Shown here piece by piece: positions 51,283-58,254 of a stretch of DNA of 64,000 nt. The stretch spans positions 468,872 to 532,871 of the forward strand of contig CAWGLN010000001.1 in assembly GCA_963823435.1 (NCBI GenBank). The letters are read 5' to 3'. How positions within the stretch are numbered: position 1 is the first letter of the stretch; every line of letters begins with the position of its first letter. The notes under the pieces were generated by a model. That model had not been told where the DNA came from and did not search any database. It saw only the letters and a list, made by a program, of their open reading frames with translations. The stretch is from an uncultured Gammaproteobacteria bacterium (GTDB taxonomy: Bacteria; Pseudomonadota; Gammaproteobacteria; Steroidobacterales; BM003). The translations under genes were made by a program, and so were the position numbers.

Positions 51283-52260
51283 TCAATCGGGAGCGAGGCC
51301 TTCCGAGTAATAATAGTTGTCATCTGTAACGAACAAGGCCTCGTAGCCCGGGAAATTCTTCAGTATTTTCAATCCTTCCTCAGGCCCCATCACAAACAGG
51401 CTGGTCGACAGGCCATCGGTAAGTGTGCCATCGGGCCCAATCACGCTCACGCTACGGACCCCTTCGACGGGACGACCGTCCGCGGGTCTCAGGATATGGT
51501 GGTAGCGTTTGCCGTCTTCAATAAAGAACCGCTCATAGTCACCGGAGGTCGAAATAGCCTCATCGTTCAGCGCCATGCGGGTAAATAGCCCATCCCGCTC
51601 ATTCGGGTCACGGATACCCACGATCCAGGGCTTTCCCATCCGGTCGCCCAGGATGCGGGTATCGCCACCCGCTGCTGCCAGCGCATGCTCAATGCCGGCC
51701 GCACGTAACAAACTGATGACCTTTTCGACCGCATAGCCTTTGGCTATGCCCCCCAGGTTAATGCGTACCCCGGGTGTTTTGAATGCTACTGTCTGCCGGG
51801 CTTCGTCAAGGATGATGTGACGATAATCAATATTCTCGAGTTGAGCCGCGATCTGCTGTGAATCGGGATGTTTGGCCGCACGAAAATCATACAGCTGGCC
51901 GACACTGTCAAAACTGATGTCAAAGGCCCCACCTGTTGCCTCGGACAAGTCGATGGCTGTTTGCAGCAGACCGAACAGCTCGGCTGACACATGCTGAGGC
52001 TCAGCGAATGCCTTGTCGTTGACCCGGCTCATCTCCGAGGTCGCTATATAGGTACTCATCAACTCTTCAATGCGATCCAGTTCCGCCATCGCTTGTGCTA
52101 TGAGTTCTTCAGCGTGGACCGAATCCTCCGACCATAGCTGGACCTCGACCCGCGTGCCCATCTTCTCTTGCTCCTGGGCAAACCATTCAGCCTGCGCCGG
52201 GCCGGACCACAGCAGACAAATGCATTGCAGGAACAAGATCAGGGGTAATTTTCGTAACAC
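51283..52260 (-). CDS. apbE: FAD:protein FMN transferase (ApbE family)
   Basis: It carries GAFDISFDSVG, NLGGIAKGYAVEKV and STSGDYERFF, with a signal peptide. Confidence 0.88.
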   Translation of the reverse strand: MLRKLPLILFLQCICLLWSGPAQAEWFAQEQEKMGTRVEVQLWSEDSVHAEELIAQAMAELDRIEELMSTYIATSEMSRVNDKAFAEPQHVSAELFGLLQTAIDLSEATGGAFDISFDSVGQLYDFRAAKHPDSQQIAAQLENIDYRHIILDEARQTVAFKTPGVRINLGGIAKGYAVEKVISLLRAAGIEHALAAAGGDTRILGDRMGKPWIVGIRDPNERDGLFTRMALNDEAISTSGDYERFFIEDGKRYHHILRPADGRPVEGVRSVSVIGPDGTLTDGLSTSLFVMGPEEGLKILKNFPGYEALFVTDDNYYYSEGLAPD

Positions 52261-52322
52261 GCCAAGCTCTCTAGAGTCAGGCCCTACCGGGCGACCACCG
52301 GGAAATCAGGAACCAGGTTGCG

Positions 52323-54881: not shown

Positions 54882-55588
54882 TCGTCCACATCCTCGTTTT
54901 CATTCCGGTCACTGAGAACCACGTAGCTCTTGTACTCCAGCCGCACGATGAAGCGGCGTGACAGATAGGAGCTAATCCCGACACCAACTATTGCAGTCTG
55001 GTCATCGCGGTCGGGTGTCTGCGCCAAACTCGCCTTTGGCTCTATATGGATTAGCCCGGTCCCCAGCGAGAAAAATGGTGAGGCACGCCACTCCGGCACA
55101 AAGGTATGCACGATATTCGCACTAAAACCCCAGCCATCGGAAAAATTACCCAAAATTTGTGACGCGTTTAACTCTACCGACAAATGGCGGGAGAAGCGGT
55201 ACGAGCCATAACCCGTATAGGAGGTGGCTCCTCCGAAATCACCGGCCAGCAAGCCCCATTCCCAGCGGCGTTTGTCGAACGCCTCCCTGCCTGCGTCTGG
55301 AAAATCCGTTGGTTTGCCGGACGGCTGCAAGGTTAGCTGCATTTGGTCACGGCTGGCCCACCCCTCGCGTCCATCGGGGCCAACAACCTTGAACCAGTCG
55401 GTACGTCGTTTCAGAATGCCAACCTGGTCTCCCCTTTCGATAATCTGGGTGATCGGATAGCCAGAACCGGGACCGGTATGCAATTCAATATAGGGGTCCG
55501 CTACCACTACACGCTGCACTTCATCTTCCGCCGCAGCACTGGCTGACAGCAGCATTAATCCAATGGCCAGCCAGACTCCTCGCTTCAT
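54851..55588 (-). CDS. SH3-like domain fused to an outer-membrane beta-barrel domain (245 aa)
   Basis: After the signal peptide comes YIELHTGPGSGYPITQIIERGDQVGILKRRTDWFKVVGPDGREGWASRDQM, which looks like a bacterial SH3. Barrel strands follow, ending AGFAVFF. Confidence 0.7.
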   Translation of the reverse strand: MKRGVWLAIGLMLLSASAAAEDEVQRVVVADPYIELHTGPGSGYPITQIIERGDQVGILKRRTDWFKVVGPDGREGWASRDQMQLTLQPSGKPTDFPDAGREAFDKRRWEWGLLAGDFGGATSYTGYGSYRFSRHLSVELNASQILGNFSDGWGFSANIVHTFVPEWRASPFFSLGTGLIHIEPKASLAQTPDRDDQTAIVGVGISSYLSRRFIVRLEYKSYVVLSDRNENEDVDEWKAGFAVFF

Positions 55589-58254
55589 CAGTTCACCGGC
55601 GCCTCGAAGGGATTATTGTAGTACTGCGCGCCCAGGTCCAGCCACTCGGATATCAGCCGCAATTCCTGTTCGCTCAACCATCCTGGATGATTGCCGTTGG
55701 CGCCAAAACGTGTGAAAAAGGCAGGACGATTGTTTGCACCGGCTGCAGTGAGCGGAGATCCAATCGGCTCAGGCTCCAGAATCGGGTCGCCATTGGCGTC
55801 GACGTTACCCTGATCAGTTAACACGTCCTGAACAGCGCCATCGCGTATTTCTTCCCGGAAGTCCCCGAACAACAGCTCCCGATAGGAAACGAAATGCAGT
55901 ACCTGTGCTGCAGATGCGTTACTGGTGAGCTCAAGCTGGCCGCGATCTACCGGGTCAATCAACTGGTCCATAGCGTCCCGCAATGCGTGGCAATTTGTAC
56001 AACGATAATTATCGGTCTCCAGCATGGTAACCGGATCGATGACCGGACGCGAGACATCCCACAAAGGTTGAATGTGGGTTTGGTAATTAATCAGGACCCG
56101 GCAATCTGCGGTCCAGGGAAAACAGTCAAAGATTTCCGGTCGCGGCGTCAGTAGCAAATCCGCATAGCGCACACTGAAGGGATCATCAACTGGCCGACCA
56201 GCATCGGGCGGATAGGTCCAGACATCCGCATATACCAGGTCAACACTCGGAGTAAGGCTAGCGGGGTCAGCGTTGGCACGGGCTTCTGCCATCGTGTCGC
56301 CGATATTGATTGTCGGATAGGCCAGCGGATCGGTATTTGCGAATGGCACGCCGTTGCCAGCGGCGCCCGCATAGACGGATGCAAACGCGTCATCGCGACC
56401 ATGCGACACGCCCACGGCATTGTCATGGCAGCCGTTGCAAGAGAGCGTTTCACCAGGTCTTACCTGGACCCAGTTCTGATGGCGGCGGCCCAGGCGTCGA
56501 CCCGCCTTATCGGTCACATCAAAGGTAATTGGCACATCCGCCGGGATCTTGATCATCACCGAGCCATCCGGCTCCACGGGCGCATAGCCGACGATCTCGC
56601 GCATGCCAAATTGGACAGATACCCCGAAGGCCGAATTGTCGAAATCAAGGGTTTCCTCATCAGGGATCCCGACTGCCTTATAGAGTCGCAGGAAACGTGC
56701 GGGTCGCTCATCCGCCAGGGTGAGAGCAGGATCCGCCAGCGAAGCTATGTCCGGCACAGCTGTGTCGACACCACTCACATCGTAGACACTGCGAATCTTG
56801 AGAATACCGGCGTCTTCACTGACCAGGGCTGGATCGAACAGACCTGACAAGGCGCCATCCACGATAGTCGCGGGACGCGGGCGCGGCTGCGCGACAGCTA
56901 CATCGGTGTAGATAAAACCCGGCTCGGCAACAACAATGGGCAACTGCGTATCACTGCCGAGGTTATAGGCCCAGATGCCATAGGCCGGTTGCGCCTCAAC
57001 AGCCAGCGGATTCTGCAGATTTGTATCGGTGCAGGGAAGCAACGGCGACACTGTGCCGGGCGCAGCCAGGGGATCAATGATCTGCAGCTGACAGAGACTC
57101 CAGCTCACGAACGCACGATTGGTACCGTCCCAAAGAGGCCATGCTGAAGCAAATCGCCCACCGGGGGATATTCCGGGAACAGTGCGCACATCATTAATCG
57201 TAGCCGACTCCTGGGCCGGGCCACTGAGCACGCCCTGATTGACCAGGCTCGGCTGGGTATTATTCAGGTAGTTGGCAGTATCAATGACTACCAGGTCGCC
57301 ACCCTCGCTGGTTCCGCTGAAGGGCTGAAGCATGGCCATGATCCGGCCATCCGGCATTTCGCGAGGCTTGATGAATTGCACGGTCGAGCCGTTTGTTCCG
57401 GTGGTATGGCTGTCCGCGCCATACAGCAACTGCAAATCGGTTCCATCAGGATTAGCGTGGTACAGACTGACTGCATTGCTACCCAGCATGCCATCCCAGC
57501 GGGAGAACATGACACGACCGTTATCCAGAATGAACGGATACAGGTCGTGACTCTGATTAAACGAAATCTGCGTCAGGTTGTCGCCATCATCATCCATGAC
57601 GTGCAGCACGAAAGCCGGCTCACGCTGGTCCTCGTCGAGTGCCGCGAATTGTGGCTTGCCTTGGTCCAGCAGCTTCGCTGCAGACCGATTCTGCCGGGTC
57701 GAGCTAAATAGAATTCGGCCATCCGGCAGGTACACGGGCGAAATATCATGACCTTCTTCAGCTGTAATATCATCGAGCAGAATCCTGCGCGTGCTTGCGC
57801 TGGCGACATCGTATTCCCAGATATTCCAGGTTGGCTGATCCTCGTCATCAGCATCCGGATCCATCGGGCCGCGCAACGAAAACAGAACTCTTGTCCCGTC
57901 ATAAGACACGGAAACATCACGGACATCACCCAGCCCATTGGTTATTGAACCGGTGAGATTGGTTTCAGGGGCGCTTACAGAAGCCCTTACACGCATATAA
58001 AGGTCGGCGCCAAATTGCACAGTCAGCAGTTCACGAAAGTCGTTCTGCTGAATCAACCCCTGGTTATCGAGCGGTACCGGTCGCTTGACGTAGAACATCG
58101 GATAGTCGACCACCACCGGGTCGGGGTCCTGACCTTCGCCAAGACTTATGCCGCTGTCACCGCCACAGCTTGATAGCGCCGGCAGCAACAAACCTAGCAA
58201 GAGGATTCTGAGGCCGGCCACAAGTGCCGACGTTTTATTTCGCGCCCAAATCAT
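55588..58254 (-). CDS. TolB-like (PD40) beta-propeller lipoprotein with a C-terminal region bearing two CxxCH motifs (~889 aa)
   Basis: - Start at the ATG at 58254 (GGAGA RBS), giving MIWARNKTSALVAGLRILLLGLLLPALSSCGG (lipobox).
- PD40-like repeats are present: SVSYDGTRVLFS, SPVYLPDGRILFSS, PFILDNGRVMFSR.
- The CxxCH motifs are CNGCH and CTNCH. Confidence 0.75.
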   Translation of the reverse strand: MIWARNKTSALVAGLRILLLGLLLPALSSCGGDSGISLGEGQDPDPVVVDYPMFYVKRPVPLDNQGLIQQNDFRELLTVQFGADLYMRVRASVSAPETNLTGSITNGLGDVRDVSVSYDGTRVLFSLRGPMDPDADDEDQPTWNIWEYDVASASTRRILLDDITAEEGHDISPVYLPDGRILFSSTRQNRSAAKLLDQGKPQFAALDEDQREPAFVLHVMDDDGDNLTQISFNQSHDLYPFILDNGRVMFSRWDGMLGSNAVSLYHANPDGTDLQLLYGADSHTTGTNGSTVQFIKPREMPDGRIMAMLQPFSGTSEGGDLVVIDTANYLNNTQPSLVNQGVLSGPAQESATINDVRTVPGISPGGRFASAWPLWDGTNRAFVSWSLCQLQIIDPLAAPGTVSPLLPCTDTNLQNPLAVEAQPAYGIWAYNLGSDTQLPIVVAEPGFIYTDVAVAQPRPRPATIVDGALSGLFDPALVSEDAGILKIRSVYDVSGVDTAVPDIASLADPALTLADERPARFLRLYKAVGIPDEETLDFDNSAFGVSVQFGMREIVGYAPVEPDGSVMIKIPADVPITFDVTDKAGRRLGRRHQNWVQVRPGETLSCNGCHDNAVGVSHGRDDAFASVYAGAAGNGVPFANTDPLAYPTINIGDTMAEARANADPASLTPSVDLVYADVWTYPPDAGRPVDDPFSVRYADLLLTPRPEIFDCFPWTADCRVLINYQTHIQPLWDVSRPVIDPVTMLETDNYRCTNCHALRDAMDQLIDPVDRGQLELTSNASAAQVLHFVSYRELLFGDFREEIRDGAVQDVLTDQGNVDANGDPILEPEPIGSPLTAAGANNRPAFFTRFGANGNHPGWLSEQELRLISEWLDLGAQYYNNPFEAPVN

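Follow-up and report, generated by a model that had tools for sequence, protein, structure and literature searches.

ApbE, a flavin adenine dinucleotide (FAD):protein flavin mononucleotide (FMN) transferase, flavinylates the neighbouring DUF3570 protein of Chlorobium luteolum at two serine motifs, as was established by co-expression and mutagenesis, and both belong to a recurrent cluster of ApbE, DUF3570, a thioredoxin-like protein and a DUF4266 protein with a C-terminal CXC (DsbD is found in 227 such clusters and absent from 316; Méheust 2021, eLife, PMC8238504). For Gammaproteobacteria a "core complex" of aglR/Q/S, gltC/D/E/G and one extra gene has been described, with no function assigned (Luciano 2011, PMC3169522), and a 2025 survey counted more than 600 structural homologues of the alpha subunit of hydrazine synthase (HZS), none with known function (PMC12758564). 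Here we describe a stretch of 64,000 nucleotides, referred to as the window, from an uncultured Gammaproteobacteria bacterium (GenBank assembly GCA_963823435.1, contig CAWGLN010000001.1, positions 468,872 to 532,871), in which a run of seven genes, G1 to G7, includes DUF4266, DUF3570 and ApbE. We report that these seven genes lie in the middle of approximately 20 clustered genes in three blocks, present in Woeseiaceae-like and other Gammaproteobacteria. With a probability of roughly 60% we read this cluster as the known flavinylation module placed in a motor-linked outer-membrane redox supercluster that is controlled by cyclic di-GMP (c-di-GMP). Specifically, block 1 (G1-G6) would constitute an outer-membrane and periplasmic redox set, the divergent block 2 (U1-U3, with U4 in relatives) would supply haem-motif and LamG lipoproteins and a twin-arginine-type protein, and block 3 (G8-G17) would be a Glt core-complex-like, proton-driven machine behind a riboswitch of the c-di-GMP-I class. 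The component classes are each known, and their conserved combination is apparently undescribed in the searchable literature.

All seven open reading frames (ORFs) are on the minus strand; positions are those of the whole window:

G1, 55588-58254, minus strand: lipoprotein of 888 amino acids; Pfam PD40 (36 bits) and HZS_alpha (59.6 bits)
CNGCH haem-c motif of G1, 56425-56439, minus strand: residues 606-610
CTNCH haem-c motif of G1, 55987-56001, minus strand: residues 752-756
G2, 54851-55588, minus strand: 245 amino acids with a signal peptide; Pfam SH3_3 (36.9 bits) and OMP_b-brl (24.6 bits)
G3, 54231-54881, minus strand: 216 amino acids; Pfam OMP_b-brl (35.3 bits), NCBIfam TIGR04565
G4, 53714-54217, minus strand: TlpA/ResA-like protein; Pfam AhpC-TSA (103 bits) and Redoxin (102 bits)
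G5, 53477-53704, minus strand: DUF4266 (PF14086) lipoprotein with the lipobox ISAC; Pfam 78.5 bits
G6, 52323-53474, minus strand: DUF3570 (PF12094); Pfam 103.2 bits, cut-off 25
Tandem flavinylation-type motifs of G6, DSISSAS and DVLSYAS, 53211-53255, minus strand: located by a relaxed motif search and by conserved columns
G7, 51283-52260, minus strand: ApbE (FAD:protein FMN transferase); Pfam 282.9 bits

The original prediction for this DNA had described seven co-directional ORFs with overlaps or gaps of at most 62 nucleotides, followed by a gap of 359 nucleotides, and both coordinates and junctions agree with this description. From G1 to G7 the junctions are overlaps of 1 and 31 nucleotides and then gaps of 13, 9, 2 and 62 nucleotides, and the 359 nucleotides separate G7 from G8 (50420-50923, minus strand). 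The domain labels given for G2 to G7 are upheld by Pfam and the motifs listed at the time (CNGCH and CTNCH in G1, CGPC in G4 and CARC in G8) are all present. Two further metagenome contigs encode identical proteins, and the closest genome is a metagenome-assembled genome of the Woeseiaceae with 77% identity in DUF3570. The gene caller of the public contigs begins ApbE at an internal ATG (292 amino acids); we prefer the 325-amino-acid G7 that begins with GTG at position 52260, since this start adds a plausible signal peptide. In NCBIfam G7 matches ApbE with 138.6 bits, which is under the equivalog cut-off. Promoter and terminator scans of positions 50300-58700 gave sites no more numerous than in shuffled sequence, and a promoter-like site at 51247-51219, between ApbE and the aptamer described below, was not counted as evidence, the scan being at the level of shuffled sequence.

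The seven-residue flavinylation motif is D-x-x-[S/T]-G-A-[S/T] (PMC12052999). The absence of an [S/T]GA[T/S] motif from the neighbouring proteins, as originally noted, is borne out, since the literal form [S/T]GA[S/T] is found in none of the 20 neighbourhood proteins, which explains why no motif had been seen. The statement that the ApbE substrate is unaccounted for does not stand: DUF3570 is itself a verified ApbE substrate (PMC8238504) and G6 has DSISSAS at invariant columns. With the relaxed pattern Dxx[ST][GSA]A[ST] the sole match among the same 20 proteins is this DSISSAS (residues 74-80 of G6), and DVLSYAS (residues 82-88) comes right after it. Seven residues of the two motifs (D74, A79, S80, D82, V83, A87 and S88) do not vary across 30 homologues, in one of which the sequence is SGAS. 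Together, the motif and the published Chlorobium experiment strongly suggest that ApbE would move FMN from FAD to G6, which would carry it on the serine of DSISSAS (Ser80) and perhaps also on that of DVLSYAS (Ser88).

The AlphaFold2 model of G6 is all beta with approximately 18 strands (pLDDT 84, pTM 0.79), and its best Foldseek matches are the outer-membrane barrels FadL, AlgE, OmpG and PelB (TM 0.44-0.52). An N-terminal signal sequence is present and the protein ends with the aromatic C-terminus ...VSFWF; aromatic C-terminal residues are the usual signature of outer-membrane proteins, and G2 (...FAVFF) and G3 (...SFSFFF) end in a similar manner. G6 is predicted to be an outer-membrane beta-barrel, in the model of which the motifs are at the end of strand 3 and in a low-confidence loop (78-90). 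By the usual topology rule the long-loop side of a barrel is its external or lumenal side, and counting strands from either terminus would place the motif loop on that side. The Chlorobium DUF3570 protein carried flavin even though it came from the insoluble pellet (PMC8238504), which fits ApbE acting on an unfolded precursor in the periplasm.

Next to the barrel, two small proteins carry conserved cysteines. G4 has CGPC at residue 64, with CxPC in 85 of 86 orthologues upstream of DUF4266, and in NCBIfam both G4 and G8, the second protein of this type, score highest against ResA. G5 ends with GGGCGCN (53477-53500); of 94 orthologues, 86 have exactly this heptad and 93 keep CxC. Such near-invariance, far above the conservation elsewhere in the protein, suggests that the C-terminus is a site for a cofactor, a metal or a modification. 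As in the cluster described by Méheust, the same four families are co-directional, DUF4266 has a C-terminal CxC, ApbE has a signal peptide and DUF3570 has serine-ending flavinylation-type motifs. Unlike in that cluster, G4 is of the TlpA/Redoxin type (PF00578/PF08534) and not PF13899, SSAS and SYAS take the place of SGAS, no DsbD is nearby, ApbE is dispensable from the locus in most relatives, and genes for an HZS-alpha-like dihaem protein and two small barrels invariably come before the set. Moreover, the set is tied here to U1-U3 and to a Glt-like motor; neither these ties nor the preceding genes appear in the main text of PMC8238504. We also considered a link through JDVT-CTERM proteins, which adjoin DUF4266, DUF3570 and TlpA genes in a few species (Haft preprint, bioRxiv 10.1101/2023.06.07.544157). 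Those neighbourhoods are another sign that this trio partners with varied surface proteins, and no such C-terminal sorting signal is evident here.

For G1 the label "TolB-like propeller" had been proposed; the propeller is there, but the label is not kept, because Pfam, phmmer and Foldseek all find G1 HZS-alpha-like over its full length. G1 has the lipobox LSSC (Cys30), followed by a beta-propeller, an HZS_alpha middle domain and a C-terminal domain. A phmmer search of the PDB with G1 returned chain A of 5C2V, hydrazine synthase alpha of anammox bacteria, as its sole match (E = 4.7e-8) in three collinear segments corresponding to propeller, middle and C-terminal domain, with CNGCH paired to CSGCH of hydrazine synthase. 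In Foldseek the G1 model (pLDDT 70.7) likewise had 5c2v_A on top (E = 2.4e-23 over 976 columns), TolB and peptidase propellers ranking next with E near 1e-9; owing to the moderate quality of the model, TM-scores reach only 0.30-0.34. Both haem-c motifs (C606/C609/H610 and C752/C755/H756) remain unchanged across 30 homologues, with identities as low as 53%, and His618 and the lipobox cysteine are invariant or almost so. G1 thus has the three-domain layout of hydrazine synthase alpha and one CxxCH in each of the last two domains. Unlike that subunit it is a lipoprotein, it is approximately 15% identical to it, and beta and gamma genes are absent nearby: no second propeller and no MauG/CCP-like gene, which the homologues of these subunits would be, is found among the Pfam-scanned proteins of the cluster. 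Since it scores far below the cut-off of the NCBIfam equivalog hydrazine_alpha (NF052339; 52.8 bits compared with 800) and has no adjoining beta/gamma partners, G1 is, as judged from sequence, a member of the wider HZS_alpha-domain family and not a hydrazine synthase.

G2 (245 amino acids) and G3 (216 amino acids) are OmpA-like barrels similar in size and kind to GltA and GltB of Myxococcus xanthus, an OmpA-like pair of 256 and 275 amino acids that bind the TPR (tetratricopeptide repeat) protein GltC. GltA and GltB are paralogues, whereas G2 and G3 have no detectable mutual similarity by BLASTP (E = 41) and, by this measure, are not paralogues; as an analogy, the original likening of the two barrels to GltA and GltB appears reasonable. 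G3 belongs to the myxobacteria-rich OMP_myx_plus family TIGR04565 (152.9 bits, cut-off 60), and both genes stay with G1 and G4-G6 in every arrangement.

The conservation of the redox genes was followed in 80 genome loci around relatives of DUF3570, where the counts refer to loci with enough flank. Presence in these loci was as follows, U1 to U3 being three genes divergent from, and upstream of, G1:

G5: 77 of 78 loci
G4: 68 of 74 loci
G3: 69 of 70 loci
G2: 63 of 63 loci
G1: 55 of 57 loci
U1, divergent: 56 of 56 loci
U2, divergent: 55 of 56 loci
U3, divergent, upstream of G1: 54 of 55 loci
G9-G11 within 10 kilobases (kb) downstream of DUF3570: 11 of 48 loci
ApbE and G9-G11 jointly within 10 kb downstream of DUF3570: 9 of 48 loci

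Keeping the order G1-G6 in 92-100% of these loci is far beyond chance, and gene content downstream of DUF3570 is otherwise variable. With presence at 92-100%, compared with 10 of 48 loci for ApbE within 10 kb downstream of DUF3570, the conserved core is G1-G6 with U1-U3 rather than G1-G7. The run of seven genes that was read as one operon is therefore real in the window, whereas the conserved unit is G1-G6 with the divergent U1-U3 (and U4). ApbE is an accessory gene found at block boundaries and, where present, usually just upstream of the TonB/TPR operon. In two relatives (L085 and L086) a LemA/M48 pair on the opposite strand (7387-9930) lies between DUF3570 and ApbE and is followed by ApbE-TlpA-G9-TPR...TonB, and in L169 a LemA gene on the opposite strand (15970-16557) has the same position. 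These insertions indicate that ApbE need not be co-transcribed with DUF3570. Two other loci (L126 and L137) have the gene order U3-ApbE-G9.

The genes of the divergent block that lie in the window are:

U1, 58451-59669, plus strand: approximately 400 amino acids with one CxxCH (CVGCH); weak PSCyt2 match (E = 0.0012)
U2, 59742-62185, plus strand: lipoprotein with CGACH and CVGCH; Pfam Laminin_G_3 (68.7 bits)
U3, 62216-63853, plus strand: 545 amino acids with a twin-arginine-type N-terminus (RREFIAQG...); the last U gene in the window

U1 is transcribed divergently from G1, and an orthologue has a PSD2 match (E = 0.0018), so that its likeness to planctomycete-type PSCyt2/PSD2 proteins is weak. 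U3 matched neither Pfam nor NCBIfam and had no relative in a PDB sequence search. U1 has one frameshift near 59304-59329 and U2 at least three between about 61420 and 61664, as located by tblastn with the orthologue from L168 (orthologues of U2 have 817-835 amino acids); these breaks are either assembly errors or real decay. In relatives, U4 combines a zinc-ribbon-like N-terminus with a methyltransferase domain of the CARME type and a C-terminus that weakly resembles PqqD. Where the redox block precedes the motor operon on the same strand (arrangement A, below), the genes after U4 encode a conserved PepSY protein, a response regulator of the OmpR type and a histidine kinase resembling PhoQ. 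U4 and the regulators were seen in L167-L169 and L171, approximately 5.8-9.5 kb upstream of G1, and the OmpR-type regulator and the PhoQ-like kinase are candidate regulators of the cluster.

On the other side of the run, beyond the 359-nucleotide gap, is the TonB/TPR operon:

G8, 50420-50923, minus strand: second TlpA/ResA-like protein, with CARC, at the operon head; Pfam AhpC-TSA (85.7 bits)
G9, 49849-50394, minus strand: secreted protein of 181 amino acids, the best conserved of the operon (56-82% identity)
G10 (619 amino acids), G11 (943 amino acids), G12 (lipoprotein of 211 amino acids) and G13 (110 amino acids), 44195-49845, minus strand: G10-G12 with Pfam TPR matches, G13 without a domain match
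G14 (MotA/TolQ/ExbB-type), G15 and G16 (ExbD/TolR-type), 42465-44146, minus strand: Pfam MotA_ExbB (104.7 bits) and ExbD (63.6 bits)
G17, 41508-42434, minus strand: TonB-like protein with an AgmX(GltG)/PglI C-terminal domain; NF033768 (69.2 bits, cut-off 40)

The operon had been said to start with a TlpA-like protein carrying an atypical CARC; gene and motif are as described, while "atypical" is not, since G8 orthologues keep both cysteines with a highly variable dipeptide between them and CARC is one of many CxxC variants. G9 had no match in Pfam, NCBIfam or the PDB, a PDB profile search included; it has 68 invariant columns in nine sequences and relatives in 1208 clusters at 50% identity (E <= 1e-3). 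For G10-G12, NCBIfam gave only generic TPR, YbgF or BamD likeness (GltE 26.9 bits compared with a cut-off of 225), and a PDB sequence search with G11 gave nothing informative; G10-G13 are candidates for a GltC/D/E-like periplasmic part. The composition of G14-G16 is AglRQS-like, with sub-threshold NCBIfam matches to TolQ and TolR, and in G17 the GltG and GltJ equivalogs match the same region below threshold, Pfam TonB_C being weak. Like the Agl-Glt core complex, this single operon unites a TolQ-like gene, two genes of the TolR type, three for TPR proteins, one for a TonB-like protein that has an AgmX/PglI tail, and an additional gene for which myxobacteria have no homologue. Unlike the Agl-Glt machinery of Myxococcus xanthus, there is no GltF, H, I, J or K and no CglB here, and there are instead the extra TlpA-like and G9 genes, the riboswitch leader and the linkage to flavin and haem genes. 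In composition the operon is, by these matches, Glt core-complex-like. This likeness lies in composition and in the G17 domain, and gliding is not known in bacteria carrying the cluster.

A second GltG-like TonB copy is located at 38025-39025 (minus strand), with 83-87% DNA identity to the G17 region 41503-42505 (minus strand), and is split by a frameshift into the ORFs 38178-38954 and 38030-38371. It is flanked by DUF3014 paralogues at 32621-33601 and 39114-39968 (approximately 83% nucleotide identity). Just downstream of the motor operon and on the opposite strand, 40511-41309 (plus strand) holds two small genes, the second of which (76 amino acids, LNCPLPIIK) we presume from its CPxP motif to encode a TusA-type sulfur carrier.

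Linkage was examined from the motor side in 80 metagenome loci around relatives of G9, of which 29 have at least 3 kb upstream of G9. The operon gene order is kept in all motor-side loci, and the sequence upstream of G9 falls into three groups:

Arrangement A, the DUF3570 block upstream of G9 on the same strand, which is the order of the window: 4 of 29 loci
Arrangement B, U1>U2>U3(>U4) upstream of G9 on the same strand, with G1 and G2 (and G3) divergent beyond: 23 of 29 loci
Only ApbE-TlpA upstream of G9: 2 of 29 loci (L127 and L149)

Hence block 1 or block 2 is directly upstream in 27 of the 29 loci, across GC contents of 0.49-0.72 and G9 identities of 56-82%, while L127 and L149 have no block 1 or 2 gene in upstream flanks of 10 kb and 4.5 kb. 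One contig holds a complete arrangement B (G11<G10<G9<U3<U2<U1 <> G1>G2>G3>TlpA>DUF4266>DUF3570), and a third order is present in L108 (ApbE > riboswitch > G1...G6 > G9...TonB). Seven look-ups centred on G1 gave four cases of arrangement A, one of arrangement B and two unlinked within 10 kb. Stitching of arrangement-B metagenome loci to DUF3570-side genome loci by blastn gave no useful overlaps, and no G1 homologue from an arrangement-B locus was among the top 120. That the blocks stay adjacent through such rearrangements is good evidence that they are functionally coupled. The original prediction had joined the redox genes to the TonB/TPR operon, and in this it gains support, the two being neighbours in three gene orders with a riboswitch of the same class ahead of each block. 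Independent segregation of the two gene sets, which it had named as speaking against the link, is mostly not seen: 27 of 29 loci are linked and at least one lineage is unlinked.

The riboswitch lies in the 359-nucleotide gap:

Aptamer of the c-di-GMP-I class (GEMM-I clan, CL00126), 51012-51108, minus strand: Rfam RF03167, 66.5 bits (gathering threshold 59), E = 1.6e-13

The match is full-length, on the coding strand, with a GNRA tetraloop, 88 nucleotides upstream of the G8 ATG, which gives the motor operon its own signal-responsive leader. Orthologous positions match RF01051 or RF03167 in 5 of 7 arrangement-A loci. In the window the best model is the GGC variant RF03167, and orthologous copies score as canonical RF01051 (two of them with 78.7 and 59.3 bits, threshold 35). 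The aptamers here are like RF01051/RF03167 riboswitches in being above-threshold, full-length aptamers in a 5' leader, and differ from the GGC variant in that six aligned copies all read ACGCAAAGC where the variant consensus has G. The adenine in ACGCAAAGC is presumably the canonical adenine of the Vc2 structure, and the ligand is most likely c-di-GMP. Folding of the leader (z = -1.1) revealed neither a clear terminator nor a clear sequestor.

A covariance model built from the six copies and searched against 1,116,051 bases of motor-side sequence, the window included, gave 30 matches in approximately 1.1 Mb, one being that of the window itself. Of the 29 matches elsewhere, 28 are directly upstream of the TlpA-like head of the G9-TonB operon and one is upstream of G1 (L108), while 0.98 Mb of DUF3570-only loci gave one match, upstream of U1 in Lentisalinibacter sediminis (L066). 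Thus, each of the three blocks would, in one genome or another, be under the control of a leader of this class. The riboswitch heads the motor operon in 25 of 68 loci, distributed as follows according to the gene upstream of the operon head:

ApbE upstream: riboswitch in 15 of 27 loci
U3 or U4 upstream: riboswitch in 6 of 31 loci
Other gene upstream: riboswitch in 4 of 10 loci

The searchable literature yielded no report of a riboswitch with a Glt-like or ExbD link.

Elsewhere in the window, a Pfam scan of 20 large ORFs gave type VI secretion, methionine biosynthesis, peptidases and DUF3014. The type VI secretion set (2157-19230) has VipB-like sheath genes at 2157-3611 and 16414-17577, a ClpV-like AAA+ gene at 8349-11084, and TssG, TssF, ImpE and ImpA. 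An S-adenosylmethionine (SAM) riboswitch (RF00162, 85 bits) is present at 26347-26459 (minus strand) upstream of an alpha/beta-hydrolase gene (25256-26245), and a gene for a pyridoxal phosphate (PLP) enzyme of the Cys/Met type (23952-25223) is in the same riboswitch-led stretch; the genes from 23952 to 26245 are probably a methionine-biosynthesis operon.

With respect to how the cluster might work, thiol-disulfide exchange would run from TlpA to the CxC of DUF4266 and from there to or from the barrel flavin and the haems of G1, U1 and U2, and the c-di-GMP-switched motor may, to judge from linkage only, act on or through the outer-membrane barrels, with c-di-GMP as the putative inducer. Most likely, the cluster serves extracytosolic electron transfer at the outer membrane and does so in connection with a surface-associated lifestyle. 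This would be analogous in function, with no homology, to the MtrCAB porin-cytochrome conduits, which also combine an outer-membrane barrel with periplasmic or lipoprotein redox proteins. In MtrCAB a decahaem protein is threaded through a 26-strand barrel, whereas here the cofactor would be covalent FMN on a barrel loop. It is doubtful that all of this forms one trans-envelope machine, in which the c-di-GMP-controlled Glt-like motor would be coupled to the barrel, whose covalent flavin on the long-loop side would face the cell surface or the barrel lumen, and the barrel would work with the HZS-like dihaem enzyme.

Other explanations account for parts of these data. The seven genes might be a self-contained redox operon whose ApbE serves an acceptor encoded elsewhere, such as Nqr, Rnf or another FMN-binding protein, and whose barrels are lent to the motor. 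The lack of a literal [S/T]GA[S/T] in any neighbour would fit, and ApbE is mostly not beside DUF3570, so that an ApbE from another locus must be able to serve the latter and G7 could serve other targets; given that DUF3570 is an experimentally shown ApbE substrate (PMC8238504), that G6 has D-x-x-S-S-A-S at invariant columns with SGAS in one orthologue, and that the conserved operon is G1-G6, in which G2 and G3 remain with G1 and G4-G6 in every arrangement, we consider this very unlikely. Alternatively, the redox module and the Glt-core-like motor could be unrelated neighbours whose adjacency is inherited synteny without functional meaning, for which the lineage with blocks 1 and 2 and no block 3 within 10 kb, the two loci with ApbE, TlpA and block 3 and neither of the other blocks in their flanks, and the relatedness of the sampled genomes can be cited. 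At least three rearrangements change the block and the strand that abut the motor operon, yet the adjacency persists; 27 of the 29 motor-side loci are linked over the range of G9 identity and GC content given above; the same class of riboswitch is ahead of block 3, 1 or 2 depending on the genome; and in L108 a single riboswitch stands ahead of blocks 1 and 3, which there run in the same direction without interruption. Together, these observations make mere synteny unlikely.

Proteins of the TlpA/ResA/CcmG type classically reduce the cysteines of apocytochromes or copper sites, and TlpA, DUF4266, DUF3570 and ApbE could thus be a maturation pathway that keeps the CxxCH motifs of G1, U1 and U2 reduced or assembles the cytochromes, leaving the work to the haem proteins. 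That G4 and G8 score highest against ResA and that three or four CxxCH proteins are encoded alongside is in keeping with such a pathway. It nevertheless seems improbable to us, because hundreds of clusters have this four-gene flavinylation set but no such cytochromes (PMC8238504), an outer-membrane barrel with a covalent flavin would be a strange means of reducing periplasmic thiols, and general Ccm or ResA systems are normally enough for haem attachment. Reductive uptake of a metal such as iron, energised by TonB, with DUF3570 as the channel, flavin and haems reducing the metal and ExbB/ExbD/TonB powering the transport, would agree with the presence of ExbB/ExbD/TonB-type proteins and with flavinylation clusters linked to iron reduction, including 25 DUF3570 clusters with the VIT1 iron transporter (PMC8238504). 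We regard it as highly improbable, since the tail of G17 is AgmX/PglI and not a strong TonB_C, DUF3570 has neither a plug domain nor a TonB-dependent-receptor signature, the cluster has no iron transporter, and its control is by a c-di-GMP-class riboswitch with no obvious iron signal.

Several observations also weigh against the flavinylated redox supercluster that we favour. The motifs of G6 have Ser (first) or Tyr (second) at the canonical Gly, and Gly to Ala, the sole change of this Gly that has been tested, lowered flavinylation without abolishing it (PMC12052999). ApbE is close to DUF3570 in few loci, and the scan of 20 large ORFs found no DsbD/CcdA-type electron importer in the rest of the window. 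Frameshifts interrupt U1 and U2 in this assembly, while all other cluster genes are intact. Most arrangement-B loci are without the riboswitch, and the two G1-centred loci that are unlinked represent one lineage, which has blocks 1 and 2 and no block 3 within 10 kb. Moreover, the sampled genomes are mostly related Gammaproteobacteria, so the counts are not independent evidence, and we infer the electron path and the motor coupling for a cluster that is known as sequence alone.

If the less likely trans-envelope machine considered above exists, it would represent a flavin route for cell-surface redox chemistry, unlike the multihaem porin-cytochrome conduits, and would give a first function to the "core complex" ancestral to gliding motors; should the flavin loop face outward, extracellular electron transfer would here follow a new design. 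The locus joins DUF3570 flavinylation, the Glt core complex of Gammaproteobacteria and HZS-alpha-like proteins outside anammox, the roles of which are unassigned in the literature, and their side-by-side coding together with the riboswitch provides a genetic handle in the cultivable relatives Lentisalinibacter, Steroidobacter and Aliikangiella. Finally, our data point to outer-membrane redox chemistry in abundant sediment and soil bacteria, together with a surface-associated lifestyle.

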